The notes under the pieces are model-generated. The model had not been told where the DNA came from. It saw only the letters and a program-made list of their open reading frames with translations, and did not search any database. From NCBI GenBank assembly GCA_977018835.1, contig OZ361257.1:1550001-1614000 (forward strand): DNA of 64,000 nt. The letters are read 5' to 3'. Made by a program: the position numbers and the translations under genes. The stretch is from Minutocellus sp. GHC0000111 (Eukaryota). Shown piece after piece: positions 2,798-31,035 of the stretch. How positions within the stretch are numbered: position 1 is the stretch's first letter; each line of letters begins with the position of its first letter.

Positions 2798-2928
2798 GGA
2801 GCATTGCTAAAAATAGCTAGGCCTAGCTAGTGGCTTGGAGTAAGATTGCTGAGACTTGGAGTAGGAATGTGAGATCTCTGGCAAATCTTAGGCTGATATT
2901 CAAACGCTACTTAAAAAATGTCATTCTG

Positions 2929-5900
2929 CTACCATGTACCCCCCTGCAGCTTAGATCCATTGTCAAGCGTTGGCATACGATTGAAAGCAAGCTGCTTAAG
3001 GCACAATGCCTTGATAGTGTCCATCGATCTCACCATACTCCTCATGTAAATGTCAAGCTTTTTATCCCGTGTAATTCCCATTCTCTCTTTGTCAGAAAGA
3101 GACTTTGGTTCCACAAAAAGTTGAGAATAGAAATCACCAAATGTCTTGGAGTCGGTCCATCCGAAAAGGCGACCAAGATCTTGAACGCCACCGTTTAATC
3201 CCTCGTCGGATTCCCAACATGCCACCAAGCGTTCGGGATGTGATAGCATTTGTCCCTGAACAATCTTGAGCATACTATTTAGAGTCTGAAGCTGGATGTG
3301 TCTTGACGAAAACTGACGATTCATGGACGTAGATTTGAGTACTCGGTACGGATCTCGGTACGACACTGCGTGTTGACATCGAACACCAGCGGCACTACAC
3401 GCCTCATAAATAATATCCAGGTCAGGATATTGCAAGGCCCTTGCCGGACCAAATAGTAGAGGATAGCTGAGGTAGGGTGACACCTTATTTCTGGTACCGA
3501 TGGACCCCGAATTGATTGCAATAACTAGATCCGTCCCAGGTGCTATGGGTTTGTCGGATTGGAGCCCACGGAGTGCCTTGTGCTCAATTCGCTTCAAATG
3601 ACCAACAAGATTATCAAAAAGTCTTTCCCCGTCAACATGGGTGTCCTCCTGAAGCCACCATTCGTCTTTGTTGTTCTCAGATGTAGCAGACATTGCCGAG
3701 AACAATCCATCCAAGGGCTGCTTTCTGTTCCACAGTGAAAGCGTTAGACGCATCATGTCAGGCTCAAGCCCATATTCATTCAGGCGTTTGTGCATGGGGC
3801 TTTGCTTGTAAATATCCCGATGCAAATGGTGGCCAGTTCCCTCGACCCCCATTAAAAATTGAAAAACAATAGGCGACTTCTCATTGTTGTGAGCTATAGT
3901 CTCTGGCTCTTCCCCAAGCTCAATCTCATCGTCGTTGTAAGAACTACAATCCTCAGCATTCCGGAATTTTTGCACAAGAAGGGCACAGGTCCTACTGGGA
4001 AGTTTCCCCCCAACATGTTTTACTGCAGTGGTGACCCCTGATCCATCTTCTTCGACAAATACGTCGCAGGCATTTGCCCAGATATGGCGCAAGCCGCGGA
4101 ATGTATTATCAACATTAGTCCTCGCATATGCACAGTTCCCATCGCTGTCACCCTCGAACCATTTCTTGTCATTCCCAAGGTGAAATGTAACCTTGAGCTC
4201 GTCAGATGCAAATGTTGTATATCGATCGGCAAGATGCTCAATTTGAGCCAACAACATTTTCCCAAATGGTGGGTAGCCAAGAGAGATATTTCCCATCTCG
4301 AGCTGGTCAAATATGCTTCTTTTCATGACAAAGCAGTCGCTGCCGGGATGAATATCTCCGGTACTTTTGTAGATCATGTCAAGGTCATTGGCAGTGTATG
4401 GCGTGAAGATTCCCCCATCCTCGTCGTTAGCGTTATCGCCATTCGTATAGGTTCCCTTATCAATTGTTTGTCGATTAATCGTGAAGGCATCATAACCTTG
4501 CTGTATGGCAATGGAAATCACATCGTAGAAATCGTCTCGTACAATAATGTCGGCATTTGTGTAGATGACATAATCAAAAGGTTCTATCAGCTCATCTTCC
4601 GACGCTGCCGCATTTCTCAGGTTGGAAAATACATCATCCACAAAGGGGAGGTTCTTCTGCGGTACCAGACTTGGATATTCCGTTGTGGTGGATCGTTCAA
4701 GATCAGGAAGACGTAGGAAGTCATCTGGAACGGCCTTGTGGTCGTCAGCGAAAACAGAAGTCGCAAGCACAACAGATGCGGGCGCCTTGGATGCCGTCTT
4801 TGCTCTCTGCATGCTGGCTACTGCCACACTCTGGTCCTGACCATAGGGACAGAATTTTTCCTCACAGTCCTCAACACTGTACAAGGACATCAGATGAACA
4901 AGGCGCAAGGTACTCGGATCAATAGTCTTTGTGGAGTCTAGGCCTTGCTCGCCACCCCCTTCTCCCTCTTGTTTCTCATCGCGATTGCGATGTCCTCCGT
5001 GAATACCAAAACGACGCTCGTGATCGTCGAATGGCAAATCAATCATATCCTTGGTAACTTCTTCCATTGCTTTGACACGGCGGACAGCCCTATCAATATC
5101 CATCTCCGCATCTTGCAACAAATCGAATTTCTGTGTCATTTCGTCTCTGACCTTGCCAACAACCTCGGCAATGCGCTTCGTTGCTACATCTTCATCTGTT
5201 GAAGCCTCATAAACAAAGTCATCATAATCCAGACAAATGACATTGGGATATGTGCAATATTTCTCTTCAACTTCCAATCCCTTGGCAGATCGAGTAGAGG
5301 CAACATACAAACTTGTTTCGAACCAATTGCCAAAGCTTCCTTGTAGATCATCGACGTCGACAGAATGTACCTTGGTCACTTTCGTTGCATTGAGAGATTT
5401 GGGTGTAGCTTTCCTGAATGTCCATCGTGTAAAACGACTGGATGTGTATACATTGAATAATGCTCTCCTTTGGCTTTGACATTGTGATCTGTGCCATCAT
5501 CGGCAATAACAATATCTCCAGCCTTGGCATCTCGCAGAAATGCATATCCAGTATCCAATGATTCCTCCAGCAATCCCTGCAGAATGCAATTGAGCAAGGT
5601 TGAGCCCGAGTGCGGCCGTGATATCTGAAATATGTGGATATCATCACTAGGCTGTGACTTTTGTGCAGTGAATGGAACTGAGTTGGAATGAGATTGTTTG
5701 GTCGACCCCAGTCGTCTTCGTTGATATCGATCGCTGGAACCAAATCTCAAATTAGCGCCAGGATGTGCATAGTGCCGTTCGGCAGAGCTGTGAAAAGATG
5801 CTGAAGGATCAGCAGAATGACTGGCTGCGAGGATATCATCGGCCATACGCATCATGGTGGCAATGTTTAGGGAACAAAAGAGGACGGGAGCACCGACCAT

Positions 5901-11571: not shown

Positions 11572-12136
11572 GTGAATGCAAGGTCGAGCTCTGACAAATA
11601 CGTCAGCAGCAGCAGCAGCAGCAATTCCTCGCCTATACTATTGTTACAAAAGGCCTTTGTCTAGATACCGCCCTACAGTTTGCTCACAAACTGATTTACC
11701 AAATTGAATTGGTAGTTTTGTCGTAAAGAAGAAAATTGATTATTTTGAAAATAGGGAACATGTAGTAGAAGCTCTCACACCTACCTGTACAGCTGTAACG
11801 AGAGCACAGTCGCCCCCCCCCCCCCCCAGTTGCTGCTGCTATTAAGTAAAGAAATGACGAGTGGTGCTCCCGCGTCGGGGTGGTTTTGGTGAGGAAATGT
11901 GCGCGGCACCAGGGGGGACCATCTGGTGCTTGTCGTGCGTACATGTACATGTATTCTGCGAGTTGTTATCGCTCTTGGGTTGGGTTCTTGCGTTTATCAT
12001 GTTGTTGGTGCAGATGTCCCGGGCGGCCTCTAATGTGATGATCGCAGTGATTTATCTTTGTTGTTAGTTAGTTTATACGGAGCGTTGCCCCGGCACTTCG
12101 TGCTATTAGCTTTGGTGTGTTTGTGTGCCATCCTTT

Positions 12137-13027
12137 ATGCGTAGGTCGAGCATCTCCAGTCAGGGCTCATCCTCTTCAACGGGGGCGAGCATTGAGCTTT
12201 CTCGGTTCGTTAACGGGCCATCATTTATTGGGCGTGAGCTGGCTCGGCGCATCGTGTTGATGTCCACTATACTTGGTCCTGGTAGTGACGGCGCTGCTGA
12301 GAATGACGCTTGGTCTGGCGTGGTTATGTCCCTTCTCGGTCATTCTTGTACAGTCCGATTTTTTCGTTGGGTGGAGAGCACTTATGTTCCTCAGTATTTA
12401 TCATCAGCGTATTCCGGTCTCAGGAGCAGTCAATTGGAAGCCGATGGCACGATGAGGAGTATGATGTCCATGTCTTCTTTGTCGGCTGCTTGTAGGGATT
12501 TATTCTACATTCGCCAGCTTCTTTGTGAAATATTTGTTCTTTTCTTTCGCGTCTCCGAGCGTGGCAGGGTCGTCGAGCGGTATGCTGATGACATCCAGTG
12601 GGGCATGGTGTCAGCTCTTGTGTCCTCGTCGAGATATCATCGGTACTTGTTTGATCACCGCCTCATGGAGTACGTTGGTTGTCTTCACTTTCGTAGTGAT
12701 CCATTCGGATCTCGAGTTTTACTGCGAGGAAGCACATTCTTGCATTTTATCTGTCGCCAGAATCATGAGTATCTTCCTCGTGTAATATCAGAATATCACC
12801 GTTTTAATGTTCAATTTGGTGGTGATATTCACGCTCGGCAGAGGCATCACAAGTATGGTTCTCCTGCTCATCATTTTCGTAGATTCCATGATATTCACAC
12901 TCATGGGAATCACAGCGACATGTTTGCATCTGGATCATCGACCTTCGAACTGTTGCGGGAATTATTCAGGGGCGGTGAGGCTTTTAATAGGTCTATATAT
13001 GACGGGGATGATTATGGTCAGGTTTAG
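12137..13027 (+). CDS. Hypothetical cargo protein (~296 aa)
   Basis: Long ORF with T-rich codon usage unlike the host genes. RGSTFLHFIC weakly resembles an ankyrin TPLH motif. No family recognised. Confidence 0.5.
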   Translation: MRRSSISSQGSSSSTGASIELSRFVNGPSFIGRELARRIVLMSTILGPGSDGAAENDAWSGVVMSLLGHSCTVRFFRWVESTYVPQYLSSAYSGLRSSQLEADGTMRSMMSMSSLSAACRDLFYIRQLLCEIFVLFFRVSERGRVVERYADDIQWGMVSALVSSSRYHRYLFDHRLMEYVGCLHFRSDPFGSRVLLRGSTFLHFICRQNHEYLPRVISEYHRFNVQFGGDIHARQRHHKYGSPAHHFRRFHDIHTHGNHSDMFASGSSTFELLRELFRGGEAFNRSIYDGDDYGQV

Positions 13028-13155
13028 CATGCTGCATAAGTGAGTGTGGTCTTCATCTCTCCGTTTTATGTGCACGTGCTATGTTCATCTTAGGGTGGTA
13101 TTTTATTGGGCACGTGCTCATATATAATATATATAATTATTTCTCTAATATGTAA

Positions 13156-16100
13156 TCATATACCTGAAGGACTATCTTCATCACCATTGGATTTTGCCTC
13201 TTCATTGTTCAGATCATTTCCAAGATTTCGATTTTGTACAGGGGAAGCATGATCTCCATTTTGATCTTGGACAGCAATATCACTAGTCCCAGCTGAAGTT
13301 GGTGTTTGGGACGAGTCCTGCGTTTCATACATTCCTAGCTCCGAGAAGGAGTGGGGAGTCACCATTTTGACTCTGGGCGACTTGATCCTTTTTGCTGTGG
13401 CGTTGAGGTCCTCTGCCAACGCTCTTCTCCATTTGTTTAGGTGGGTGAGGATTGTCACCACGTCGTTGGGATTTTCTTGGACTAACTTTTTCAGGTCGCT
13501 CTTACTAAGTTTCCTGAACGGATCATGTCTCAGTTCCTCGGCAGCAGCGGTCATCACCCCGACGGTCACGTCTTTGATCGTATCCTTTTCTTCCATTTTC
13601 CTACGGTTGCTGTGGGGATTTGCATCACCATCACGGAGTGCTTTGGCGTACCTTATAACTTGTTGCATTTTGGGACTATGGCTAGTATCACGGGCCGGTG
13701 GCGACTCTTGAGCGGCATCACCTGCGACTACTTCCTCATTTTGTCGCGGTGATGACTTCATTCTTTTTGCTCGTCTTGACTGGTCTTGGCCCCCGACTTG
13801 TTCCTCGGAATTATCTTGATTCTCATTCGCGTCGTCAGCATTTTGCCTTGCACTGTTATCTGCATTGGTTGGTTTTGTTGTTAATTTTGACGTTGGTGTA
13901 GGCGATCGTCGTCGTTTGGCTGCTGTCGATTGGAAAATAGAAATATTAAATTTGAGTAAGGGATACCAGGAAAGAGCAATTATCGAAGAATACCACGGGG
14001 TATTCAAAAGGAAGAGGCGAGCTTCAATTATTCATATCGTACCTTTTGACCCTGGATCTTTGGCTTTCCATAATCGTTGAGCTAGATTGGGATCATTCTT
14101 GTCCTCCTCAGCGGGCTCGTCAATTAGCAGTCTCACCATGGCTGCGAATCGGAATTCTTTCCTGAGGTACAATATCTCGTCACTTGTTGACTTGAATCCA
14201 ACAATGCAAGTTTTATCGTCGAGGTCGGTGTCCGTTGGAATCTGATCTCGTCTCATCGTTGACGACGAGAAGAGGAACCAATCGTCTTCGTTCTTGAGAT
14301 CCTTGATTCTCTTCTTCATTGCGTCGCTCTGCAGATATCCTGCGTCTAGTGCTTCCCTCAGCACGGAGACGTATGTAGCCATTGCTAATGATAGCACGTC
14401 CGTTGGGGGAGAATTCGATCTGGACGTCCACTCTGTCCTGTTCTTGTAGGCTGTGGCAAGGATCGTATCTGTCATGTGATCTCTTTTCTCGGCCGATGCT
14501 TCGTTGTGACGATCATTCTGATAAGCTCGATATCCCTGCACTAGCATCGATTTCTCTGCCGACCAGTTTGAGACCTCAACCGTCGTGAATCCTTTGGTCG
14601 CCAGGGCAACTTCGGTGAATTCCTTGGTTATTTCTGACAGAGCATTGTAGAAGATGTGATTCCTGATGGCCTCCAATTTATATGTCGGCAGATTATCGAG
14701 GGTGCTGTCGATCACTCCCTTGAGCTTCTTTGTTCCTCTTGCGCCTTTGCTCTGTTTCCCGGCGATAGTTGATGCCACGTTCCGCAGAAACGCCCATATA
14801 AGTTCAAGCTTGTTGTACGAAGCCATCTTTGGATCCTGAGAAAGTGCCATTTGGAAGGTGATGAGGGCGGAGGGGTTGAGGGCCATCATCGATGCAAGAT
14901 CAAGTGTTCCTCTGATTTCTTTGGTCAGCGTGAAGGTGCTCTTTTGCTTCGGGGCCTCGAATTTGTGAACTCCATACGATATTCTGTGACCAATTGCGTT
15001 ATGGAATTTGGCGTCGTCATCACAGTCGGGATCCTTTTGATATCCTCGAGCCAGAAGCTTGATCTGCGCTACCACCATTTCGAGTTTCTTTTCTGGCGTT
15101 ACTTCATCGCCATTTGTCTTTACCTTCGAGATTTCTTCTCTTCCCCAGAGCGAGGTCGCAGTTAGATTCTTTGCGAGGGCGAAAGCCGCTGCCCCCCTAA
15201 CGGACATGAGTGTTCCTTCGAGAGTACCACCACTCTCCATGAGACATGATTCTACGGTGTGATGCTTAATTTCCTTGGCCTGGCTGGCAGCATTGAGATC
15301 TTTGAGCATGTTGCTGAGTTGCGAGAAATTGGTTTGTCCCGATGATTGCTGAGCAGCACGAGCATTAAGGTCACTGACTGCTCTGAGGTGGTCTACATCT
15401 CGTGTGAAATGAAGAACCGTGACATTGACCTTGTCGAGGATCTGTGAATCAGCGTGCAACACGTTGGATCCTTGATTATGGTAGCATTCCATTTGCTTCC
15501 GCAGCGTCGGGTTGGTCACGTCAAAGGAGCGATTGCTATCATCACCATATGGCAAAACGAATGTTTTCATCCACGATGCGAGACCACGGTGCTGGCCATC
15601 AATGTTGCAACAAATTAAATTGTAACTCATTGACGTTGGAAAGGTTGATCCGAGACGACGGCGAGACAAGTAAATCACCATGTCATACCGCGCCCGCAAG
15701 ACATAGTGAGTTCTTTTCATCCCTGTATATCGGTCCAAGTCTCGAAGAAGAGGTTCCCTATGCGCAAAGAGAGGAAATATTCGTGAGTGTTCAAATTCTG
15801 TTTGAATACCTCTTGGTATTTAACCAGAAAATAAAAATCAGCACTTACCCTTCGATCTCACTATTCTTGTCCTTCTCTATGAATGATTCGATGCTCGCAA
15901 TGTCTTTTGCCAAGCCTTCGGCAATTTTTGAGCACTCGTCATGATAATCCTGGTTCCAATTCTCCTCTATTCTTCCCTTTTCAATAGTTTCCTGGATGTA
16001 TTTATCGGCTTCTTCATAGCTTCCTGCTGACAGCATGACATAATACAGTACCTTGGGTCCTGAACACTCGACCACGTGCCGCTTTACTGTTGACTCGCCA

Positions 16101-18987
16101 CTCGCGACGCCGTATTCTGCATCGAACACAAGATCCTCCTCATCATTATCTGCTTCATTGCCAACGGCTCCGATCATCAGCGTTGCAGGTTGGAATGTAA
16201 GCTGCTCCTTCGCCTCATTTCTGCTCCGGAACATGTCCACTGCGATGTCTTCGGCCTTGGCCCGCTGCACTAGTTGCTGATTACAGCCTCTGAGTTTCAA
16301 TCGCTGCGAGGAAGTCTTCGGGAAAGGTAACGACACATAGGCCAACAGGACAATTGGCCAATCCCCTCTCGAAGCAATGCTTGTTTTTAAATCAACTTTC
16401 GTCGTGCTTGCGGTTATGTTTGCGAGATGATCGACATCTTTAAATTCATCTTCATCGTCACTATCATTGTCACTCTTGCCGCTGCCCTCACTACTCTGCT
16501 CGTCTCTATCGCTGCCACTCGAGTCGTCGTTATTGGATGCCTCGCTGTTGGCTTCTTCGGCTTCATCGTCAGCGTTATCGATATTATCAATAGAGTCGTC
16601 GTTAACTGGAGGTGCATTGAAGTCCTCTTCTTCCATCGGTAGGGCTTCCTGATCATTGGTGTTTCCTTCGGTACTAACCTCGGCGTTATCGACGGCACCA
16701 TGAGGCCTGTCAGTTTCCAGAAGTAGCGTTTCTCGGCTGGCCATTTTTCGACTCTCCCGCCTTGGTGTAGCAGCGTCGACGAATAGCCTCGAGCGTTCAG
16801 TCTCGCTCATTTCTTTATCTGAGGCGTCATCGCTGAGTTCGTCAAGATTTAGAAAGGTATCCTTTTCGAGCGTATCAAGATGGGCTTTTGTTTCCTCACC
16901 CACCCTCGCGAAATGGGCTTGTAGATAGTCATTAAGGATGGCCGCCCCATTAGGAGCCACACGGTCAATTTCATCCAATACTTTGGCCACTTTCATCAAC
17001 TCTGTCTTTGCGACAAATCCTTTACTTTCCCAGAGGGGCGTAATATTCTGCCATCTGCCCAATCCAACTTCATACCATATGTCATACTTCAAGAGACATT
17101 TGACAGCAGGTCTCGAGCGCTTGGCAAAGAGTAGTTTCATTACTCCGATAATATAGCTCTGGGTGTTCATGTTCACCTCTTTATTCCTAATCAGTTGGAC
17201 ATTGTCTTTCAAGAACTGGCCCAGGTAATAGGGAGTCATGGCATTATATCCGACCCAACTAACAGTTGATTTTGTGTTCGGACCGATCGTTGGAAGAAAT
17301 TCATGAGATCGAAAGAGGTCGTGGATGGATTGCCGCTCTTCTCCGCTTGTCGCAAATCGTAAGTCAAGATCATTTGAAATAGGGCCCTCTGTCAATTCTC
17401 CAAGAGCAAGAGTCGCCAATAGCCCTTGTACAAGGAAAAGATAGACGAGATATCTCTTTTCCTTATTTTCCGCGAAAACATCAGGACCAACATGATCGTC
17501 CTCACTGAGAAGTGTTGGTACCGTAGCCCTGAGATGGTCAATTGCGTTAGTCAGAAATAAATCTATCAACTGAGGAAGCGAATCTCGATGAATGCAAACA
17601 AAGAATTCCGCTCCGCGTCTTTTGAGTTCTCCGCCAATGAAAGGATGGTAACTGGCAAAAAGTTTATCGATAACGTCATCGTCACCGTCCCTATTGATGT
17701 AGTCTGGCACGATGCCAGAGTCAATTATGTCCATGCATTTCAGGATACGTTCGATGTTATTATTGGAAACGAATGGATAAAATGCAAGCGCGGCAGAGGG
17801 GTCTTCTATCCACAGGTTGTCGAGGTTCTCCACTTTCCCCCCTGGTCGCCGATCACGGACGAGTTCACATTCTAACAGGGTCTTTGTTGGTTCGCTGACG
17901 TCTCGCTTTCTAAGCAACGTCTTCATTATCCCGAAGAGAAAGCTCTGCACGTAATTTGCGTCACGACGATAAGTCTGATATTGAGAGTTTGTGTCACCAT
18001 GATGAGAAGGGAGCACTCCATAGTAAAATCCCCACCATTCATGATTGAGATCCTCGGTGAATTTTCCGAGCGTCAGTTCACCGGCGAAACCCTCGTTATC
18101 CATTATCTTCATCATTATTCTAACGTCTTCGCTGCGCATGATGAGACTACGTCGATACGGATTTAGGTCATCCAAGTTGTCATCTACCTCGCCGTAAGTG
18201 CGATAGGCATGAATGCCCTGCGAGACGAGTGAATACACCAGCATTTTGAAAGCTCCAGTGCTCCCAAATCCTTCAGTGTTCAATCTGATACAAGCGCCCC
18301 TATCGTTTCCATCACCAGCGGCACCAATATCTTCACCATTAATTGCAGGGTCAGTGGCCCCGAAGTACTTCAAAAGAGCACGAAGAAAAAGGACCGAGAG
18401 CTTGACCGTTGAAGCCTCGCCAATGCATACACATATCTTTCCATTATGATTGAGAAACGTTGCTTCGATACCGGCAGCAGTCAACAGTTGCTTAATTCCT
18501 TCATCTGGGAGTTGGATTTGGATTTGCTATGTCACGTAAATAAAACAATGTATAAGTCAAAGGAGAGTTAGATCTCGTTTTGGGTCTTCCGAATGAATAC
18601 TGGGGGGTATTCAAAAGGAAGAACGTCATATAATCATCATGATTACGTCATGGAAATAAATCAGCACGAAAAAAAAAGAAAAATTGTTCTCCTTGAAGGG
18701 AAATATTGCTACCGCTGGATGATTTTGATTGCAACTCAAAATCACACACCAATGGACAATGATTGTCGACGTTCCCTTTCATGTGTCATCAGTGCGGGGA
18801 ATTCCCTTTCGCTCTTGGTCAGTCGAAAATATGTGTGGATCTGATATCAATCGCATGCTCATTCACCGAAATGAATACAGAAATAGTTGATACTTACATC
18901 GTTGCTCCCAGCCTTCGCCGCACGCCGAGAGTTGCCGCTGTCACCAGCATCCTCGCTTCCATCTGGGGGATCGCCAACCGTGGCCAT
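13156..18987 (-). CDS. Large spliced cargo protein (~1772 aa) with a duplicated N-terminal domain, an acidic linker and a DGQHR (ParB/DndB-like) motif
   Basis: Exons 18898-18987, 18750-18840, 15849-18504, 14043-15757 and 13156-13922. All four GT-AG introns were phase-checked by hand and are in frame. NIDGQHRGLA has DGQHR at 15586-15600. The start codon is uncertain. Confidence 0.75.
13979..14014. promoter_or_regulatory. Intronic palindrome, copy 1
   Basis: cgaa GAATAC cacggg GTATTC aaaa GGAAG, inside intron 13923-14042; the left outer arm is degenerate. Confidence 0.8.
15795..15830. promoter_or_regulatory. Intronic palindrome, copy 2
   Basis: ATTCT gttt GAATAC ctcttg GTATTt aacc AGAAA, inside intron 15758-15848. 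Confidence 0.8.
18586..18621. promoter_or_regulatory. Intronic palindrome, copy 3
   Basis: CTTCC gaat GAATAC tggggg GTATTC aaaa GGAAG, inside intron 18505-18749. Confidence 0.85.
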
Positions 18988-19025
18988 GGTCACTTCTTTG
19001 TTACGAGGCGGATGATGAGTGGACG

Positions 19026-19683
19026 TCAATATGAGCGATGTATCGTTCGTTGTACGAAGAAGCACCTTACTTTGCGATCGGTATCAGATTTTTTTTTCCA
19101 AGTTTTGTGTGCGAATGGTCCGGTATTTTCTCGGAATTCGCAGAAATCTTGATTCGTTCGACCGGATGTCAGAATAGAAAAGCCCTTTGGTGTCGCCGTA
19201 TCTTCATGTTCATTCTCGCACGTGTATTCATCTTTCATTATTTGAGAAAAGTGATAAGTGCCAGTCCATCTCAACGATTCGACCAACGCTCTTGGCAAGA
19301 GCGTCCCATCGAAAGAAAACATTGCTCCGAGGTCGCCATATTCCACGGAAGATGAGCGTAAGTGCCCTTCGCGTTTGCGTCACTCAGTCGTGGCGCCGCT
19401 TTTATTCAGTGCGACTTGTACATTTATTGCTCGGGATCGTCGCCGCGTCTCGGTTTCGTTCCAATGAATCGTATGATCATGTCAAGTTGATTACTCTGTT
19501 CATTTGTAATGCTGGAAACGAGTCGCCCATTGCGCTTGAATGGTCACGCAGTGCAGGTGATCGATCTTTACCATCGGGTCCCAAGCTTTCATCACCATCG
19601 TTGTCGGCGATGGGCAGGAGCGGCATGCATGGGCGGCATACCGATGGCGCATCGCATGGCGCGTGGCATGGTGGCGGTTCCAT
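19026..19683 (-). CDS. Possible extra 5' exons of the large cargo gene, or a small separate gene
   Basis: ORFs 19026..19346 and 19477..19683 end near donor-like sites (aaa|gtaagg at ~19070). I could not phase them cleanly to the next exon. Confidence 0.25.
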
Positions 19684-19848
19684 ATTTTTGACGCACGAAG
19701 GAAAGACATTATTTTGGGAGTATTTTCCCCTTGAAATACCTGTTCATTCGGAATGCCCGAAAAGTCCACACATCTGCACGTGCAACTGAGATTTTACACC
19801 TTTCTAGTTCTTATGATGTTAGTTGTTACTATGTTTCTTCCAGCTGCT

Positions 19849-21476
19849 ATGTCAAGCACTGGCTCTCCTAGCAGGAACCTGCGCAGCAGCAAAAGCTCTG
19901 GTGCTGCTGCTGCTGTGGCTGTGTCGCTGCTCTGCTGGTGGTAGCGCGGTGACGACAGCAAGAAGAGCAGCTGTTCTTCAGCAAAAAAGAAGAACAAGAG
20001 TGACAGTGTTTCTGCTCTTGTGGTCTCTAAGAAGAGAGCTGTTGCTGATGATCAGCGTGGTGAGTCAAGCCCTGTTGCCAAGAAGAAAACAGGTGATGAT
20101 TCTGCTCTCTCTACTACCACCTCACCTGTGCCGAGCTTGGTGGACTTATTTAACAAGCAAGAAGAAGCTAGCTGCTGTCATAGCCTTCGAAAATGGCGTT
20201 GACGTCAGCTACTTTGGCAATTGGCATAGTGCTTGTCAGATTAGCACTGGCAGCAGGGTTCCTGTGCAGGAGCTAAAGGATGAAAGCAACCCTGCCCGTG
20301 TGTTCAATGCCATTGACGATGCTGGCAGAGGCAAGCGGTTCATTCACTCTTGATGCTTGCTTGCCATGACTTGGTGCATGGCGTGGCCACTGCCTGGGCT
20401 CTTGAAGCTCGGTCCAAGGGCAGCAAGGACTGGGAGAACATTTCTGTGGTTCTTCACAGCAGTTACCCTGAGGCAATGAGTGCCATTCAGGAGAGTGGAG
20501 CTACTACAGTGTTTGTTCCTTGTGTTTGGCAAAGACGATGCTGTGAGCACGAGTGCCAGTGGTGCTCTTGAAACCCCCAAGCGCACCCCCAAAGCTGAAG
20601 GAGGTGGCGCTAGTGCTGGGAAAGTTGCTGCTGCTCTTGCTCCTCCTGCTGCTGTTGCCAGTCAGAGCACTGTTGCCATCAGTTCACCTTCAAAGTCACC
20701 ATCAAAACAGCTCAACCTGGACAGTCTTGACATCAAGGTGACCAAGGACGTTGGTCCAGAAGTACAAGAGTGCCAAGGAGGCCCGTGGTGGTGGAGCCAG
20801 TGGCTACAAGCTCACAGTGAACCTCTCTGGTGTGGTCACAACCTCAGGCAGAGCCAAAGTTGTGGGTGTCGTCAACCTCGTAGACAGGCGCAATGCCCCT
20901 TACTGGATTCTTAAGCCTGCTGTTCTCATTGACACTCTTCAAGCTTTGACCGAGAACCCCCATCTTGCGTGCCTCTCTGACCTTGCAAAGAGTGCCAAAG
21001 AGGTTCCTTTGCGCGGCATTCCTTGCGGTGCTGATGTTGGGAAGCTGTCCTGCTCCAAGACTGGGTCAGCTTTTCCAATCACAACCACCATGTTTTCCCT
21101 GGACGTGTCAGAGAAGATTCGCCCTCCTGCCGAGGAGGCTGTTTGCCTGGAGCAAATGTTGCACGAAGTTGTGACATCCAAAGTGTTCAAGGAGGCCTAC
21201 ACTGACATGATGGTGAACGGCGGTGGGCGGTGGGCCAAGCTTGGCTCTCAGATTGAGCAGGACAACCACTCCTGTTGGGTCATTTTCAAGGGGTGCAACC
21301 TGGAGGTTGTTGATCCTTCACCCCTGAACACAGTTTTGATGGACAAAGACATCAAGGAAGCCATGTCCTTCTTGACTGACGGCGTTCCCCCTGGACGCTG
21401 GGCTGCCGATGCTTCGTTGCGGAAGATTGCTTACAAGGATGGGAGCATTCCAGCTGGTACGTTTGCGGAGGAGTGA
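19849..21476 (+). pseudogene. Degenerate cargo gene (~540 codons, several frameshifts), function unknown
   Basis: Overlapping ORF pieces (19753, 20020, 19823, 20350, 20480, 20751) read as one Ser/Ala/Lys-rich protein with a globular C-terminus (VNLVDRRNAPYWILKP). The DNA is CpG- and TpA-depleted. Confidence 0.6.
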
Positions 21477-22920
21477 GGAAGTGAAACTTTGTTCTCAGGG
21501 TGGCTGCTTTCTGGTGGATTAAAAAACTTTGCATTGTCTTAGGTAAGGGCTTGATCACACTTCAACCATAAAAAAAACACCAAACACACAAACACAAACC
21601 ACTGTCAAAAAAATGAAAAACGTTAAGCGCAAAAGTCATGAAGGAGGTCAAACACTCAGTCACAAATTCAGTCAGACCCCATTTTGCAATCAAAAAATCA
21701 AAAACTGTAATCAAACTACATAGTGATCAAAAAAGCCTCTCTTGTTTGCACCTTGCTCCTCACTGTGTGCTTCAACTTCTGCTAGTGCACCTCTCACTCA
21801 TTTTTGTGTTCTTCACCTCCAGCTTTGGCACACATGGCATCTCTATCAGTGATGCCAGACAGGAGAAGTCTGTTCTCCCCCCCCCCTTTCAGGCCTCAAA
21901 AAGCAATTGCTGTGTCAACTCCCTGTGCTCGTGCACTCGCCTAGTAGTGTTGACGAGGTGTCAATCAATGGCTTGCAGCTCAACCAGCGTGTTCCAGCAA
22001 CACAGGAGGCTCTTCAAGATGATGAGAAGCTGCATTGTTTCCTTAAATGTTGCCGAGATTGGGAGCACAGTGGAGCTGAGCAACACAGGGAACACTGTTG
22101 CAAAGCCCTCAGTTTTTGTGACAGCCCCATCTTGGTGCTTGGTGCTTGAAGTCAGCCCTCTTGGTGTGCCATCAAAGGGGTTTAGCTACTTTTTCATGGA
22201 CAAGAAGGTAAAGGAGAAGATGAGCTTTGCTCTTTTGCACCAGACGCTAAAGCGTGGGCTGGCAAGGGCTTCCCTCAGGATGAAGCTGATGCCAGCAGCG
22301 CACAGCCCATGCCTGGTGAGGCTGTCTGCCAGCTTGGTTGCCGGCCCCAAAGAAGTTTGGTCAATCAAGGTCCGGTCACCCTTTGGATCGCCATTTGAGG
22401 TCAAGGTGAAAAGGACCTGCAGTGGGCGGAACTTGTGGCTTCAAGTTGTGCTTGCCACTGAGAAGCTAGCAGGACGGGGCACAGTGGACATTGACTCTCT
22501 TTATGATGGGAACCGATACGACTGTCCCCTGCCACTCTGCTGCTTGGGGTTGAGCAATGGATGCACAGTGGACGCAATTGAAAAAAAAGACCAAGAGTGG
22601 GTGATCTTCATTAAGTGCCCTGATGGCTCAGTCATCGCCACGCCGGCTAGCAAGGAGGAAGAAAGTTGCATTGATTTACATCGCGCAGAGTGGCAGCAAT
22701 GCTGGCAACTCAACTGCCGGTGTCGCCATCTGACGTGTACACGACGTTTGGGTCAAAGCTACTAGAGCACACAAAGGCAAAGTTGTGGAAGACAGGAATG
22801 CACAATGGATCAACTGTGATGGCAAACATTCGTCTTCGCGGTGGCGTCTGCGTTCCACACACCGGCAATCTCAAGCGGAGGCAAAATCAGGTAAATACCA
22901 ATCACCCGATTCATGGCTTG

Positions 22921-22956
22921 GTTCCGAAAGAATACCCCCTGGTATTCAAAAAGAAC
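22921..22956. promoter_or_regulatory. Intronic palindrome, copy 4
   Basis: GTTCC gaaa GAATAC cccctg GTATTC aaaa AGAAC, inside RepHel intron 22891-23037. Confidence 0.85.
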
Positions 22957-25843
22957 CTACACTAGCTGATGATCACAGCCCCTTTCTGCTAGCACGCTAA
23001 CTTTCAATTAAAAAAATTTTTTTTTCACAATGAACAGGTATCAAAACAAGAAAAGCAGCGACTGAAAAATGCTAGACGACACTTAGAACAAATTAAAAGG
23101 AAGGAGAGCATACCCAGGATGAACATAAAGCCACCGCATCATGACCGTCTTCGCGACTATGATGCTCTTCATGTGCAGCAGCTATGGGAAGACGCAATAG
23201 AGTTGGACGTTGATTTGAGTGCTTGCGATCCATATCGTGCACTGAACAATGACAAGTACAAAATCGCCATTGGGCAAGCCACCAAGGTAATATCGGCAGC
23301 GAGGAGGAAAAGAGACGCCCACTTCAGGAAGGAAGATATGTACGCAATTAATCGCCAAGCATTCCGAGCATCAACCTATGCCGAACAGAAGGTACTCGAA
23401 TCGCTCATGCGATTTGAATCGAGAATGATGCAACTTCACCATGATGTTTGCTCTTTGTGCAATGAGTGCAGCATTGATATGACTGTAAACAAGAATAATG
23501 TCTGTCGAAGGTGTGCAAATAAACGGACGAAAAATGATTATACGAAAGAAAATGCCATGATCCCACTGTGGATTGATGATGAGGGTAAGGAGCATCTAGA
23601 GGTTCCTCCGGAACTAGAATGCCTCACTATTGCCGAGAAATTATTGATCCAGCGCGTCTCACCGCTCGTGCCAATACATCACATTAAAAATGGCAATCTT
23701 GGAATAAAGGGGCACGTTTGCTCCTTTATGCAAAATATCGAAGATCTAGCTTCGTCGCTCCCAAAATTACCTCACCAAGTCAAAGCAATACGGATGATTC
23801 GAACTCACGAAAATAGCGACGGTCTTCCGGTCACGACAATGTACACTGTGAATCGTCGTCGCGTCATGAATGCTCTCCTCTGGCTCGTAAAGCACCACTC
23901 TGATTATAGGCAAGCCTACGAGAACGGTGAATTGACTATTGATGAAACAAATCTTGACTGGATGCCCGCCGGGATAGATGAGGCTGATCTCTTATCCGTT
24001 ACTGACATAGTGCACACCGAAAAAAAATGATAGTCTCGCTGATACCGAGGAGACTGGGGTGTCCAATTCCCAATGTATCGATCCCCTGATGATTGATAAT
24101 GATGAAGAGGAATGCTCAGGTTTCTCGTGTAAAGAGGCAACATCGCTCACCAACGAAAATCAAGAAGCAATGATAAATGCTTTGAAGGAGGCAGCAGGCG
24201 AGCAGAGCGACGTATCAAAGCTTGATTGGCCACAGACCAGCTATCCCGATGCCATTTCGGAATATTCCAATGTACGCATCTTCACGAATGCATTCCCTTG
24301 GCTTTTCCCGGGAGGAACAGGTGATTTCCGCGATCTTGACCGTGAATCAGACATAGACGTAGCAAATTGGGCACAACATCTTCTACGGCAGGCCGATGGA
24401 AGATTTCAGCGAGACAAGCTCTGGGGATTTTTTGTGTATAACTACTGCCAAAGACATCGTAACAATTCTAGCGGAGGATACTTCATCAACAATCACATCA
24501 GCGATCCGCCCAAATCTCTCGATGAATTGAAGGAACAGCTAAGGAAGGGCGACTCTTCCTTTGTTAGCAAACTCATTTTCTACAGCAAGCGAGTTCGTGG
24601 ATCAGATTCATACTGGCGGTCAGAACGCTCAAAATTATACACATGGATTTCTCACCACATAGAAGCCAATCACGGAGCGCCAGACATATTCATGACCCTC
24701 TCCTGTGCGGAATATTTTTGGCCGGATGCAATACGGCTCCTAGAAGAACGCATATGGATCGCGGAAGGGAGGAAAATCGTAAACGGAAATCGATGCTTTC
24801 GCGACGGACGGAAGATTGACCTCAGCAATAATAGGGTCGATCGAAACAGAGCCGTCAATGACTATGCCCTCGTAATTCAACAATATTTCATCAAACGTGC
24901 AGAGAATTTCTTGAACACCGTCGGAAAGGAATTACTCGGCATAAAATATTATTGGGGCCGAATGGAATTTGCCAAAGGACGGGGGCAGATACACATCCAT
25001 CTTCTTGGTATATTGGACAAGACCATGACAAGAGACCTCCAGGACCAGCTAAATGACGGAGGCAGAATTCACGCCGATCAGGCCAAACTCGTTGGGGACT
25101 GGGCAGAACGGGTCTTCGGCATGACTTCATCCATCGACAGGAATAGCGAGTGAGTATATGTGCAAATTGAATCAAAAACCAACATGATCAGACGCGACAA
25201 GGTCTCATGATCCCTCTTCCTCCTTTCTCGACAGGCCTGCTGACGAAAGCGGTAACATGGGAGCAAGCAAACAACGTCTCGGCGAGGTTTCCGACTATCG
25301 TAAGGACGAGGCTCGACTCTGTTTTGAATGCCAACATCATAAATGCGGGAGCTACTGCATGCGAAACCATCGTGCGAAGAAAAATAAAGAATCAGCAAAT
25401 TCCCCTCCCAGCACACACGAGACGAATTCAAGCACCGCAAAACCAGATAAACGACGATATTGCCGTGCCGGAACAGGATACGAGAAGACCCCAAATGCTT
25501 GCGATACACCAGGATTCCAATTACGTTCAGACCATGCCATCACCCGTGATGATCGTGATTTCCTGAAGCTCGAAATGAAGCGGAACAATCTTCGCATGAT
25601 TCAGACCCCACTCAACGTTCTGAGAGGATGGCGTGGCAATTGTGATATCAACGTGTTATTATACGACTGTCACGACAGCGAACCAACGCCAGAGGACATA
25701 GCCGAAGTTACCGATTATGTTGTCGCTTACGAGCTCGTACGCATGCAAAGGAAACGAGACACTGGCCACCGAACGCGACACTATTACAGCCATCGTCAAT
25801 CGGTGAGTGCTGCGTTGGATGCAAATGTGCCAAAACGGGACCA

Positions 25844-25879
25844 ATTCCATTTGAATACCCGCGAGTATTCAAAAAGAAT
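25844..25879. promoter_or_regulatory. Intronic palindrome, copy 5
   Basis: ATTCC attt GAATAC ccgcga GTATTC aaaa AGAAT, inside RepHel intron 25803-25961. Confidence 0.85.
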
Positions 25880-28017
25880 CTGATCCCGCGTCTATTTCCG
25901 TTCATTGTGTCATTTTCACGCTGTAACGCGCGCATGCTCAATCCCCTGATTCGACTTCCAGTGCTGAGGAGGTATCAGGAAATATTGATGATGTAATCAC
26001 ATTGGCCAGGAAGCTGCTCAACAGAGCCGTGGTCAGTAGACTTGTGCCAAAACAAGAGTGCATGGTGGAGCTAGACAAGCTTCCCTTGATCCTGTGCACG
26101 GAGACCATCGAGTCAATTAGTTTGTCCGGTAGCTACAAGCTCACATCAGACACCCACAATGGACTGGTTGCCAAATACAGAAAAATAGCTGCCAAGAACC
26201 CTAACCTTTCGCTCAGTGACCTGTTCCAACAACAAATTGGCAGCAAGAACACTGAGAAAGCTGTCATTCCACATTGGATAGGAGGGAGAGGGGGCAACCA
26301 ACATTCCCAGTCGTCACTACTAAGGAAGGACTATGCCACAGAATGACGCTGCTAGTGCACAGGCCATGGAGAGCATCAACACCTCCCCGGCTAAGCAAAG
26401 AGCAATGGATCAAAGAGTTCAACAACTCTCTTTCTGACTCGTGCTGCCCCCAGTCAGTCAAGATTGCGTACGCCAGGGTGAGAGAGCGCAAAGTGAAGAA
26501 ACGCCACAGTGTGAGCCAACAGCAGAAGATGAAGAATGCTATGACTACGAGGCTCACGGAGACATGGATGATGAAACCAGAGACATTCTCAACTTGGTCA
26601 AAACCAATGCAGTCAGCAACGACCCAGGAGTGACCATTGGGGACTTCAAGTTTGACAGAGGGCTAAACTATGACTGGTCTCAGAGAATGTTCCCTGCAAG
26701 AGACGCCATGCTTGAAGGGGGTCCTGGCTAGAAGAAGCAGTCAGCTCAAAAGATGCAACAGAATGGACACCTTTTACCACTGAAGTAGATGGAAAGCCCA
26801 TGGCAATTGATGCGTCAATGGTGAAAAATGACCAGCAGGAGTTGCTTCTGACAGTGATGAGCAAGGTCAAGGAGTGGGTGGAGTGCGCCACTTCAAGTGA
26901 TGTCAACAAAGCCAGGTCTTTCAAGCCACTCTACTTGACGGTGCAAGGCTGCGCAGGATCAGGCAAGAGCTTCTTCATTAAATGCTTGGTGAACACAGTG
27001 AGGGAGGTTTTAGGAGAGAGAAACGTCATCCATGTGGTTGGCCCCACCGGTGCAGCAGCATGGTCAGTGGGAGGACAGACAATGCACAGAAAAATTGGAA
27101 TAAACCCTCACTCTCCATCGTCTTTCCCTTCAGAAAAAAGCAAAGAGAGACAATGATGAAAGACAACAGAGTGGCAGTTGTTTACGTGCTTGATGAAAGG
27201 AGCATGTGTACACAGCAGACAACCTTGGGGCTGCTGAGAGGAATCTTGCAGCAACTGCTCATGGAGGAGGCCACGAAGGAGAGCTGTTCGGGGGGGTGCC
27301 CATCTTTCTGCTTGTGGGGGATGACTACCAGCTGCCCCCACCAACAAACACACAAAAGGGAGCATTTGACACAGTTGGAGGGCAGCCTTCACACTCACAA
27401 AGGCAAACTGGAGTTGCTGCATCAGGAGCACAGCTTTTTCTCGACACATCTGAAAAGTGCATGGAACTCAAGACAATCAAGCGTCAAAAGTCAGATCAGG
27501 TTGAACTCGTCAGCATGCTGGGAAGGCTTTGGTCAGGACACCCAACACCAGCAGATGCAGACAAGCTAATGCAGCACCACCTCACCAACTTTGGAAATGC
27601 AGAAGTGGAAGCCATCACAAGCACAGGAACAACCATGCATCTTTTTGCAAAAAAGGCGCCAAGGGATGAGTTCAACTACCAGAAGCTACAAAAGGTGTCC
27701 AGTTCAAGCAACCCAGTGGCCCTGGTGAAAACCAAGTGGGAGTCCACATCAGGGAAGGCAGCTGTCCGCAAGGCACACTTTCCAAACCCACCAGCAAATG
27801 CAACAGTTCTTAGCAGAGGCGCCATGGTCTGCCTGGCAGACCGAAACTTTGAACCAGAGTGGGGACTCTTCAACAACAGCGTGGGAGAGGTAGAAGAAAT
27901 TATTTTCGAAGAAGGAAGAAATCCAAACACAGGAGACCAACCATGCTACGTGGCAGTGAAGTTCCCTCAGCACAGCGGTCCGGTCTGGGACCCCCTGAAG
28001 CCAAAGGCAAGAACTAG

Positions 28018-28053
28018 ATTCTTGATGAATGCCGAGGGGTGTTCTTTTGGAAG
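28018..28053. promoter_or_regulatory. Intronic palindrome, copy 6 (TA>TG mutated)
   Basis: ATTCT tgat GAATgC cgaggg GTgTTC tttt GGAAG, inside RepHel intron 28007-28145. Confidence 0.75.
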
Positions 28054-29039
28054 CGCCAAGCCGTGAGTCAGGTCATTGGTTGTTTAACTGCACCAGTTTA
28101 ACTCACACCCAACAACCTCCTGCCTTTCCCCCCTCATGTGAAAAGGTCGTTCCAATTCCAATGACAGACAGAGCCATGATGTGCAAAAAAAAACAAGTGC
28201 TGCAAAGCCACTTGCTGCCCACTCACACTGTCATTTGCAAAAACGTGCCACCACACATTCCAAGGACAGTCAGCAGGACCAGTGAGCCATGGCCAGCAAC
28301 CAAATGCGGTGGACCGGGTGATTGTGGACCCAGGAGACAAAGGAATGGAGAGGGAAAGAACCCAGGGCTGCTGCTCTACATGGCGGCAGTGTCGTCAAGA
28401 GCAACCACCATTGGCGATGCTAGCAACAACAGCAGTGAGCAGAGAGGGAGACGGCAAGCCTCAGCAATCTACTTCACTGGGCACAACATGACTCGAAACA
28501 GAGTGCTGAATCTGACACTTAAAAAAGATGGGTCAGAGCACCAAAGAGTGCAGTTGAGACGAGAAAGTGGGGGCATCCCGAGTGGAAGAAAACACAGTGG
28601 GGATGCAGCTGGCTGAAGGAGAAACACCAGAGACAGTGCTGAGCTGGTGCAGGAACTTCCGTGCGAGCAAAGACACCCTTGATGAAGCTGCGAGCAACTG
28701 GAGCTGGCGCAGGAACCTGAACAGAGACCTCAATTTCTAGCAAACCAAGACAAAATTCAATTGAACACCAAATGAACTCAATGAGAAACGAGTGCTATGA
28801 AGTGGTATGGCAGGCTCTTAAACACAAACTACATGCTTACAAGACTTAGTTACTTGTTTAACCCTAATGCTGTGCACCATCCCTCTCAAACAAAGTGGTG
28901 TATCATATGAATATTCATGTCTGTATGTTTTCACTTTCAATTTTCCTACATCGCCCTGAACTAGCGGCTAAATCGGCCCTTAGCGGAACCCGGAGTTGCT
29001 GGGAATTAGAGGCCGCCCGGGCCCATAATCTCAAGCACG

Positions 29040-31035
29040 ATGGACAACGCCGTCACTCTAACGGAGCGCGTCTACCTAGGTACGGGTTGATCCAGGATAA
29101 GGATTGGACCGAAGCTATTGCTCTGCTCTCTGAGCTCCTCGAAGACTCTGGGCCATCCAGCAGAGCCCTAATGTCTCTTCTTGGATTCTGCCAATACTCT
29201 GCAGAGGAATATGACGACGCAGCGTCCACCTACCAGAAGCTATGTAAGCTGTGCCCGGAGTCGTCCGAGTATCAGGTGTACCTCGCTCAAGCCCTAGCAA
29301 AGGCAGGTGCGATGGAGGAAGCCAACCAAGTGGTCGTTGCATTGGAGGAGGACGAAGATGGGTCGGTTTTACGTGAAGATTTGATGCGACTGAAGCTTGT
29401 TATCAAGGCCGACTCGGGTGATCTCGCCATGGCTCGGGAGATGATCGACGGTGTTCAAGAAGATCCTGAAAATCTCGTTTGCGCCAGCTCTATTGCCTTC
29501 CACCAGGGACTGTACGAGGAGGCCTTGTCGGGATACTCCCGTGCACTGGACACGTTCGGCTTTCGTCCGGACTTGGCATACAATATGGCTATCTGCTCCT
29601 ACAAGCTCAAGGACTATGGCAGGGCCATGGAGGTCGTCACAGATGCGATTGGCCATATCTACGAGGCCCCCCAGAACTTTTGTCCGACCACCACCACCAG
29701 TCGCCCGATGGCAACCCCGTCACCGATCCTTCCTACCTGGCCGTCATTCAGCAGTCACGCCTAGTGGAGTGCCTCAACCTCAAGGCCTCCATCGAGTACG
29801 ACTCTGGCGATAAAGTCGCTGCCGCCAAGACTCTCGGGGATATGCCGACAATGCTGGAGGAGGACAAAGATGCAGTCACGTTGCACAACGAAGCCATATT
29901 TTGCGACGTTGAAAGTGGCAATCTGGACGGCTGCTTCAAGAAGCTCCAGCACCTTATCTCCAACGTTTCCTATCCCCCCGAGACATTTGCCAACATTATC
30001 CTGCTATATGTGCAGAACGGCTACGAAGACTTAGCTGCCACGCTTCTGGCGGAGAATGCTGATTTGACGTATGAGCTACTCTCGGAGGAGCTCTATTCCT
30101 TCTTGGATGCCTCCCTCCTCGCTGCAACGAGCCCCGAGGATGCCTTGGTTCAGTTCGACGCCCTTGCCAAGGATATTGCGAAGCGCATTCGAAAGGCATC
30201 CAAGCTGGTAAGTGAGGCCGAGAACGAGGGCGACGATGATGCTCTCGCATCTGCCCACTCCAAGCTTGACGATGCCATGAAAAGCTACCCTCCCGTGCTG
30301 ATGGCCATGGCCAGGATCCACTGGGAGAAGAAGGACTACGAGGCCGTCGAGCGTCTCCTTCGAGAGTCCGCCGAGTTCTGTCCCGATGGGAAGGCTTGTG
30401 CTACTAATCTTGCTCACGCGTACTTTATGCAGGGCAAACATGTGGAGGCGGCCATCTGTTTCGAGCCATTGGTGCAAGGAGCAATGACTGGTGGCGGTGG
30501 GGAAGGCGCCGTTCTGTACATCCCTTCCGTGGTACTAGCAAATCTCTGCGTATCCTTCATTCTTTCTGATCAGAATGACAAGGCAGAAGCCCTCATGGAT
30601 CTTGTGGAGAGGGCGGAAGAGGGGGCAACGGCCCTAAACAGAAATGGTGACCACAAGGATAAGCCCCTTGTACATCTCTCCACCATCAATTTAGTAATTG
30701 GAACACTCTACTACCAGAAGAACAACTTTGATTTTGGCATTGCCACCATCTGCAAAAGCTTCGAACCGTACGAGCAACGGCTGTCGTCCGATACGTGGCA
30801 TTACTGCAAGACCTGCCTCTTGGCATTGCTTGACAAGTTGTCCAAGCAAATGGCGACCGTCGCGGATGAAACTACTTCTCAGATTATCAGCATGCTCGAT
30901 GCCGTGGACAAGCATGGCAAGAATCTCACTTCTTCGGGAGGAGGAGACGAGTATGCGTACGTTCCCTCGTCGTCCAAGAGCACCATTTCGGCGGAGGCCA
31001 GGAAGCTCAAGCTGGCATTCTTGAGATTTGCTTAG
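29040..31035 (+). CDS. IFT70: Intraflagellar transport protein 70 (TTC30/Fleer/DYF-1), with two frame disruptions
   Basis: TPR protein with SRALMSLLGFCQY, L.ECLNLKASIEY, DAVTLHNEA, PPETFANIILLY, VLANLCVSFIL...AE.LM, INLVIGTLY..KNNFDFGI, DTWHYCK.CLL and TISAEARKLK. An 8-bp insertion lies at 29076-29083 and a 1-nt shift in a C-run near 29670. Confidence 0.9.

Follow-up and report, generated by a model that had tools for sequence, protein, structure and literature searches.

The window, by which is meant the whole 64-kb stretch of DNA that was analysed, contains a complete, multi-copy Helitron of the HLE2 (Helitron2/Helentron) type, the features of which are collected in Table 1. Its limits are given by an empty-site joint running directly from 11853 to 29025, present in three of four DNA runs, and its repeated nature is apparent from the read depth, which lies at 2,400-5,100 within the element as against 170-200 in the flanks (X4/X3), an excess of some 15-25x that should not be taken as a copy number. 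Rep exons 98-99.6% identical were found on at least 12 different long contigs among the matches listed (15 of 30 cluster members). As to the window DNA more generally, it has few short introns, and ISN1 and PPR genes are present; together with a named relative in Chaetoceros tenuissimus (33% identity), these features suggest a diatom-like alga as host, ISN1 not being known from animals.

The element carries, in order, ORF A (+), a large cargo gene (-), ORF B (+) and the RepHel gene (+). In the last of these, profile searches recognise DUF6570 (E 2.5e-21), Helitron_like_N (E 2.2e-21) and PIF1 (E 1.5e-6), preceded by a ubiquitin-like N-terminal region that ends in RLRGG at about 22845. The cargo gene is intact and spliced; the frameshifts in RepHel of the window copy are small duplications that do not occur in the Illumina contigs, and another copy of the element has an open 677-aa exon. 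No Pfam match was found for ORF A, nor any relative of it in the 80 related loci discussed below, while ORF B, for which there are 46 homologous ORFs, has no match in Pfam or PDB. Viral contigs contained no relative of RepHel. Membership of HLE2, as that group is described in PMC11417382, is indicated by a RepHel protein (Rep plus PIF1) with DUF6570, by short (17-bp) terminal inverted repeats, by accessory genes lying upstream of RepHel and by a terminal stem-loop, the position of which outside the left repeat corresponds to the layout termed HLE2-reverse there. A point of difference is the target: HLE2 insertion is stated to occur "generally" between T and T (PMC11417382), whereas the window element lies at AT, as read from the empty site of a single insertion in which two bases are ambiguous.

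Table 1 Features of the Helitron in the window (positions are those of the window; RNA runs were four in number).
Feature	Position	Strand	Remarks
Whole HLE2-type Helitron, 17,171 bp, multi-copy	11854..29024		Empty-site joint and depth
Stem-loop outside left terminal inverted repeat	11906..11929		HLE2-reverse layout
Left 17-bp terminal inverted repeat	12018..12034	+	
ORF A, 305-aa open frame	12110..13027	+	
Cargo gene, 1,749 aa	13156..18987	-	4 exons, 18987-18898, 18526-15849, 15757-14043, 13922-13156; RNA joints, open spliced frame
Site 1	13980..14013		Cargo intron 3 (13923-14042), skipped by RNA contigs of 3/4 runs
DGQHR motif of cargo, aa 976-980	15586..15600	-	Likely ParB/Srx-type nucleotide-binding signature
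Site 2	15796..15829		Cargo intron 2 (15758-15848), skipped by RNA contigs of 3/4 runs
Site 3	18587..18620		Cargo intron 1 (18527-18897), skipped by RNA contigs of 2/4 runs
ORF B, clade-wide accessory gene	19849..21476	+	Frameshifted in window copy; start approximate
CG-, TA- and AT-depleted domain	19850..22700		CG o/e 0.35-0.38
RepHel gene	21800..28800	+	Ubiquitin-like N-terminal region, DUF6570, Rep, PIF1 helicase; ends approximate
CpG-intact island	22720..25960		o/e 1.1; flanked by sites 4 and 5
Site 4	22922..22955		RepHel intron 22891-23037, skipped by RNA contigs of 2/4 runs
Antisense-transcript intron across RepHel, 307 nt	23502..23808	-	3/4 RNA runs; without site
Second antisense intron, 117 nt	24539..24655	-	3/4 RNA runs; without site
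RepHel intron, 85 nt	25150..25234	+	Homology; without site
Site 5	25845..25878		RepHel intron 25803-25961 (intron inferred, splicing not observed); L001 and L013 have variant sites in the homologous intron
CG-, TA- and AT-depleted domain	25980..28800		CG o/e 0.33; contains degenerate site 6
Site 6	28019..28052		GC-AG intron ~28007-28145, skipped in 1/4 RNA runs (depth 3.6, weak); site degenerate, two arm changes, both TA>TG
Right 17-bp terminal inverted repeat	29005..29021	-	

Within this element there are six copies of a palindrome, TTCY-N4-GAATAC-N6-GTATTC-N4-RGAA, and there are no others in the window. A reading of the sequence alone had already noticed these, describing them as three copies in the minus-strand cargo gene and three in the plus-strand RepHel gene, the last of them mutated, and on all of these counts it proved right; the length, however, is 34 bp rather than 36, and the starts had been placed one base early. 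Its further observations, that the motif is missing from host DNA, that the GC-rich 6-bp spacer is unlike in each copy and that the rest of each intron is unrelated, likewise hold good for the window. Scored with a leave-one-out weight matrix the sites reach 28.4-42.2 bits each, while elsewhere in the window the highest score is 7.1 bits; the core with up to two mismatches is matched nine times in the window where 1.75+-1.26 matches would be expected, a number reached in none of 100 shuffles. The six spacers are six different sequences with 3-5 G/C out of 6, and similarity between the site-bearing introns, which are 91-371 nt long, is confined to the 34 bp. Nor is the distance to the splice sites fixed, being 12-277 nt from the 5' and 38-93 nt to the 3' splice site. 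Spacing between sites in the window element is at most about 4 kb, and the matrix scan found none in the promoter region of cargo and ORF B. Outside the window, the exact motif has no match in viral contigs and one in prokaryote genomes.

That every site lies in an intron was also part of the sequence-only reading. Five of the six introns, one of them weakly, are seen spliced in RNA contigs (Table 1), and these five skips are absent from the DNA-run joints, among the joints listed (15 of 19). The exception is the intron of site 5, for which the RNA contigs of four runs contain no spliced form; in this case an intron is required by the RepHel reading frame, and is likewise present in the relatives L001 and L013. 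The accompanying generalisation, that all element introns of 91 nt or more carry a site, is true of the sense strand but not of the antisense strand, on which introns of 307 nt and of 117 nt have no site. As to the shorter introns said to have none, that of 85 nt was recovered with support from homology and indeed has no site, whereas one of 57 nt was not located. Introns are probably used simply as the only non-coding space available within two long genes, which would keep the sites no more than about 4 kb apart.

Of 251 related loci, the 80 best were taken for comparison; these comprise 50 families, 39 of which have a locus of at least 5 kb. The window motif itself does not recur in these 80 loci with up to one core mismatch, and the only approach to it is one weak two-mismatch match, in L004. 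What does recur is the pattern. A dispersed palindrome cluster of the family's own, with a length of about 33 bp (the scan window was 32-33 nt, which favours that length), was found in introns or intergenic DNA of 21 of the 39 families, in each case exceeding in size whatever any of the 20 local shuffles gave; by the same test the cluster was not significant in the other 18, and none of three host stretches run as controls beat its shuffles. A scan for exact arms gave hits in 12 of 58 loci as against 0 of 58 shuffles, adding L006, L014, L018 and L064, while L039 and L045 have a short common core seen by pattern search alone. Of the loci extending as far as the site-5 intron, the closest are L013 (83% Rep identity) and L001 (80%): both have, in the same intron, TTC-N5-arm-N6-arm-N5-GAA, i.e. 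the same 34-bp geometry, with new inner arms (TAGTAC in L013 and CAGTGG/CCACTT in L001, as compared with GAATAC/GTATTC in the window).

Placement is conserved as well. Each of the 21 RepHel sites tested in relatives falls in a gap that has stops in all three frames and is taken out by a GT-AG join, although the ends of these gaps are approximate; other sites in relatives lie in promoter and 3' regions. This stop-gap/GT-AG test was used for intron placement in place of a tblastn coding mask, which puts 66 of 88 sites outside conserved coding sequence and which bleeds across short introns. Related elements carry related sites, as judged from a quick tree, and some relatives (L031, L077) have short tandem clusters of them. 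Both terminal repeats could be located in four elements, and the palindrome sites listed lie inside these elements in L023, L031 and L051, as do the core matches in L039. The expectation that the motif would be conserved in related elements therefore failed for the exact sequence and succeeded for geometry and placement; on these comparisons the palindrome arrangement is to be regarded as real and clade-wide, with a sequence specific to each family.

A palindrome in an intron could of course act either as duplex DNA or as a hairpin. When half-sites from 26 hand-picked loci (not all independent, and collected with a 32-33-nt scan window that favours such a length) are aligned on the dyad, conservation peaks at 4-5 bp (0.85-0.89) and again at 14-15 bp (0.87-0.90), falling to about 0.5 beyond 18 bp, a profile that is read here as two contact patches one helical turn apart. 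If the sites were instead RNA or single-stranded-DNA hairpins, serving as a splicing aid, an RNA-binding site or a priming signal, one would look for signs of pairing between the arms, and it is true that four of the six window sites fold with z below -2.8, and that both changes in site 6 preserve G-U pairs. However, foldability is expected of any palindrome, several families' sites fold weakly (median -2.5 to -3.4 kcal/mol), and the site 6 changes fit the local loss of TA to TG. Moreover, arms pair no better within sites than between them (1573 vs 1615+-13 permuted), double deviations are not compensated (57 vs 80+-7 by permutation), arm mismatches on the sense strand have no wobble bias (30 G-T vs 37 A-C), relatives place sites in promoter and 3' regions, and Rfam gives no match, all of which makes hairpins very improbable. 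Since the conservation peaks are one turn apart and there is neither co-variation between the arms nor a G-U bias, the site is better regarded as double-stranded DNA for a dimer, and it is very probably a duplex site for a protein encoded by the element. The earlier preference for such a site over a splice signal or a copied introner is supported by the varying distance to the splice sites and by the non-intronic sites, in addition to the lack of co-variation.

The length of 34 bp is also that of loxP and FRT, and one site per intron recalls introner patterns, but recombination sites of the lox/dif kind or copied introner/MITE remnants are the least probable of all the explanations considered, and lox/dif-like geometry is unlikely among the possibilities listed earlier, given that tyrosine recombinases require matching spacers whereas all six differ here, that no recombinase domain or family was found among the ORFs scanned, and that the introns, of varied length, have only the 34 bp in common, with the homologous introns of relatives bearing different palindromes.

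Which protein would bind the sites is a separate question, and here the cargo is the most promising candidate. The window cargo has 10 database matches, seven of them at 28-40% identity. A divergent cargo with a G-x-H/T-R motif is found in 18 of the 20 loci that have at least 5 kb upstream of RepHel, using a profile built from these same families (except L040); variants in relatives are DGLHR, GGLHR, EGCHR, EGQTR, EGGHR and NGQHR, and G and R are invariant in 23 aligned rows. The exceptions are L030, which is cut short, and L006, in which sites are present and the cargo motif was not detected. The motif follows a hydrophobic strand and precedes a helix, an order also seen in the predicted model (of low confidence), and in this it resembles the ParB/Srx fold family, for which DGQHR, DGQQR and FGGCHR have been given as signatures of one family (PMC4619093). 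The form GERRxR, found in CTP-clamp ParBs, is absent from the cargo, although KorB likewise departs from it (PMC11790492). An Atlas search placed the cargo with a "DGQHR domain" cluster at 0.93, and hhalign against DndB gave 63.9% over 21 columns; with canonical ParB and AIPR hhalign gave no match, and the positive controls failed likewise. A similar Atlas search with the L039 domain reached AIPR clusters at just 0.80-0.81, which is a lead, AIPR being a member of the ParB clan. Taken together these data suggest that the cargo likely carries a ParB/Srx-type nucleotide-binding signature.

Apart from the motif, support for this assignment is modest. Nothing was found for the cargo by profile scans of Pfam, NCBIfam, PHROGs and PDB or by tblastn against phages, and neither an HTH domain nor a modifying enzyme was identified. 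Two structure predictions gave models of low confidence (mean pLDDT 61-64), which had no clear match in three fold searches (Foldseek, VIA). A homodimer prediction for cargo exon 3, run without an alignment, scored 0.00, and for exon 2 there is no relative outside its own family. Rates were compared in three pairs with Rep identities of 78-83%, using a quick version of the tree: the two cargoes are 80% identical in L039/L045, which have the same site core, 56% in L072/L077, between which the core differs slightly, and 35% between the window and the L013 family, which has another inner arm (cargo P0122 was assigned to the L013 family on the grounds that both contigs are 19,869 long and that P0145 is a 100% match to L013). 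In these three pairs, as judged from the sequences, the cargo diverges fastest where the site changes. It is probably the cargo that would bind the sites, while ORF B remains an alternative candidate. It may be added that ORF B and RepHel are co-inherited with the sites, as the cargo is.

One possible trace of what such binding might achieve is the composition of the element. CG o/e is 1.0-1.1 in the cargo and in the island between sites 4 and 5, whereas in the two depleted domains (Table 1) TA o/e falls to 0.27; the depletion of CG and TA is family-wide, because the Illumina contigs differ by few substitutions there. The TA>TG changes in site 6 match the depletion of the domain around it. Of 27 loci, 20 have a higher CpG o/e close to the sites than away from them (0.81 vs 0.71, p = 0.008 over all 27), a small effect that is confounded by intron composition. 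Good sites also occur within CpG-poor tracts (L061, L035/L036, L031, L051), and in L051, L057 and L031 CpG is retained in the cargo half but lost from ORF B and RepHel, although sites are present. The idea that sites alone protect CpG as a general rule was rejected, given these several families. The evidence from CpG for an anti-silencing role is mixed. When DNMT5a is lost in Phaeodactylum tricornutum, methylation decreases and young transposons are more strongly expressed (PMC9998398).

The reading preferred here, tentatively and at a little under an even chance, is one of self-recognition resembling both parS and VANC. A dimer of the predicted ParB/Srx-like cargo would bind the duplex palindromes of its own family, load there and then spread over a few kilobases, and in so doing would mark the element as self and oppose silencing by the host, so that anti-silencing would be the main outcome of the system. 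A bolder and more speculative version, to be put at about one chance in three, would have a widespread algal clade of rolling-circle transposons operate a eukaryotic module of the parS/ParB type, in which a nucleotide-gated clamp encoded by the element loads at family-specific intronic palindromes of about 33 bp, slides for kilobases and blocks both methylation and hypermutation by the host, with palindrome and protein co-evolving as a private address code in at least 20 families. Anti-silencing is only modestly preferred over the two alternatives that follow, because the CpG signal is confounded and has exceptions.

The first of these is that the same cargo dimer is a long-range regulator of transcription, by which RepHel and ORF B would be held largely inactive and the element would limit itself. 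There is a precedent in KorB, a CTP clamp of the ParB family that represses from a distant operator (PMC11790492), and self-regulation of this kind would agree both with the spliced antisense transcripts that traverse RepHel and with the elements noted above in which the cargo half keeps its CpG while ORF B and RepHel do not. However, sense splicing of RepHel is seen in two of four RNA runs, the cargo/ORF B promoter region of the window element has no site, and the quick, family-specific turnover of sites may suggest an arms race, so that self-regulation is considered unlikely. A role in transposition, in which cargo, ORF B or the RepHel N-terminus would bind the sites and thereby condense the 14-17 kb donor or the circular intermediate, tether it or retain it, in the manner of parS or a transposition enhancer, is given an equally low rating. 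It would fit the position of the sites inside elements with both terminal repeats located (core matches in the case of L039), their close spacing and the clade-wide presence of ORF B, and family specificity would have the advantage of preventing cross-mobilisation. Against it, we know of no other Helitron with a need for internal sites, and in the three close pairs it is cargo divergence that tracks the change of site, at a constant level of Rep identity; ORF B is comparable in only some pairs.

If self-recognition by the cargo is correct, this would extend such recognition to Helitrons and would show how dispersed, non-tandem sites change in concert; were spreading also real, a bacterial clamp mechanism would be at work in eukaryotic chromatin, and targeted work on algal epigenomes would gain orthogonal tools. 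Self-recognition is directly testable by swaps, since in over 20 instances the clade itself combines a long, sharply defined site with a candidate protein, and among these are close relatives that differ in their inner arms.

It is instructive to compare the element with known systems. The sequence-only reading knew of no such system in Helitrons, and the literature surveyed (mostly titles and abstracts, with most subscription papers and the Bostrychia supplements outside it) likewise contains no description of a ParB-type cargo or of intronic palindromes in Helitrons. For HLE2 in particular, neither a ParB-type cargo nor internal palindromes are named in section 22 of PMC11417382, which does not give all 20 domains, or in one supplementary file, which also has no diatom names. 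The nearest precedents are in algal transposons of other kinds: Plavaka PAG3 of Bostrychia has a ParB-like accessory gene with adjacent tandem inverted repeats (bioRxiv 10.1101/2025.02.11.637652), and Sola1-1_Ec32 of Ectocarpus a ParB-like accessory gene (PMC12477816), the role in both cases being put forward as a proposal. These are cut-and-paste DDE transposons whereas the window element is of the rolling-circle type; in them a 2OG oxygenase or a methyltransferase is joined to the ParB domain, whereas no enzyme domain was found here; and the PAG3 repeats form tandem arrays beside the gene, in contrast to sites that are mostly single and dispersed through introns.

Compared with the bacterial systems, parS, at 16 bp, is about half as long as the window site, the cargo motif is G-x-H/T-R rather than GERRxR, and no ParA partner was seen. 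Palindromic sites dispersed over a mobile element are nevertheless shared with ParB/parS and with KorB/OB (PMC11790492), and a G-x-x-R signature following a hydrophobic strand is common to ParB/KorB, DGQHR/DndB and GmrS (PMC11790492, PMC4619093).

Closest in logic are the VANDAL elements of Arabidopsis, the VANC proteins of which bind short motifs, particular to each family, in the non-coding DNA of the element (PMC5735166). Both systems have family-specific motifs concentrated in the element's introns and intergenic regions, together with a fast-evolving accessory protein, and the analogy, already drawn in the sequence-only reading, is strengthened because the sequence of the sites is specific to the family while their geometry and placement are conserved. 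There are differences: the VANC21 motif is 9 bp long and amplified in tandem in one orientation, whereas the window has single, bipartite 34-bp palindromes in unrelated introns, and for VANC both binding and demethylation have been demonstrated (PMC5735166). According to bioRxiv 10.1101/2025.02.11.637652, no transposon system other than VANDAL/VANC is known to bind its own sequence and modify it, and for the algal ParB-like genes this is no more than proposed; against this background, with its precedents in algal cut-and-paste transposons, what is new here is a candidate for transposon self-recognition in Helitrons.

The N-terminal exon of RepHel encodes one or two domains that, as judged by eye, appear ubiquitin-like and end in RLRGG, and ends of a comparable kind (RLKGG, RLLGG, KMRGG and similar) are found upstream of the Rep exon in the related Helitron loci L004, L005, L006, L007, L008, L011 and L034, the residue that follows an ending of this type being mostly V. 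A Pfam search of the N-terminal region of RepHel gave no match. This region suggests that RepHel may be a ubiquitin-fusion transposase, cleaved by a deubiquitinase.

Coordinates (window) of the features discussed
Feature	Position
RepHel N-terminal exon	22350-22850
Antisense spliced transcript	23500-27650
535-nt skip	21387-21921
Depleted domains	19850-22700; 25980-28800
Patches matched by second Helitron family	23771-26516
Helitron insertion beside the TPR gene	29024-29042
Frame change in TPR gene	near 29470-29764
MITE-like element	46077-46826

An antisense spliced transcript spans RepHel in three of the four RNA runs, which come from two studies. Two RNA runs contain a 535-nt skip with non-canonical ends, possibly a deletion derivative. 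Within the depleted domains CG, TA and AT are all under-represented and CA/TG and AG/CT enriched; small tandem duplications of the window copy are concentrated in the same domains, where contigs carry 20-44 gap letters each, as against none in a 6,251-nt cargo contig. Depletion and duplications together could reflect either a local hypermutation process exceeding simple CpG decay or assembly error.

DNA runs X4 and X3 also contain another, diverged family of Helitrons, which has roughly one third of the depth and matches the element in conserved patches. A TPR gene that resembles IFT70/TTC30 has its ATG 15 nt downstream of the insertion point, and it shows a frame change; elsewhere in the window, the MITE-like element has terminal inverted repeats of 87 nt and internal palindromic repeats.

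Turning to known systems, the half-sites TTATCCAC and TGGAT(A/T)ATCCA of related loci L072, L073 and L006 resemble the bacterial DnaA box, probably by coincidence. An ESM Atlas search with the cargo protein placed fungal DUF3723 at rank 3 (score 0.93). DUF3723 is an accessory domain of Starships; none of the papers searched contains both terms. DUF3723 may be another ParB/Srx-like accessory protein of transposons.
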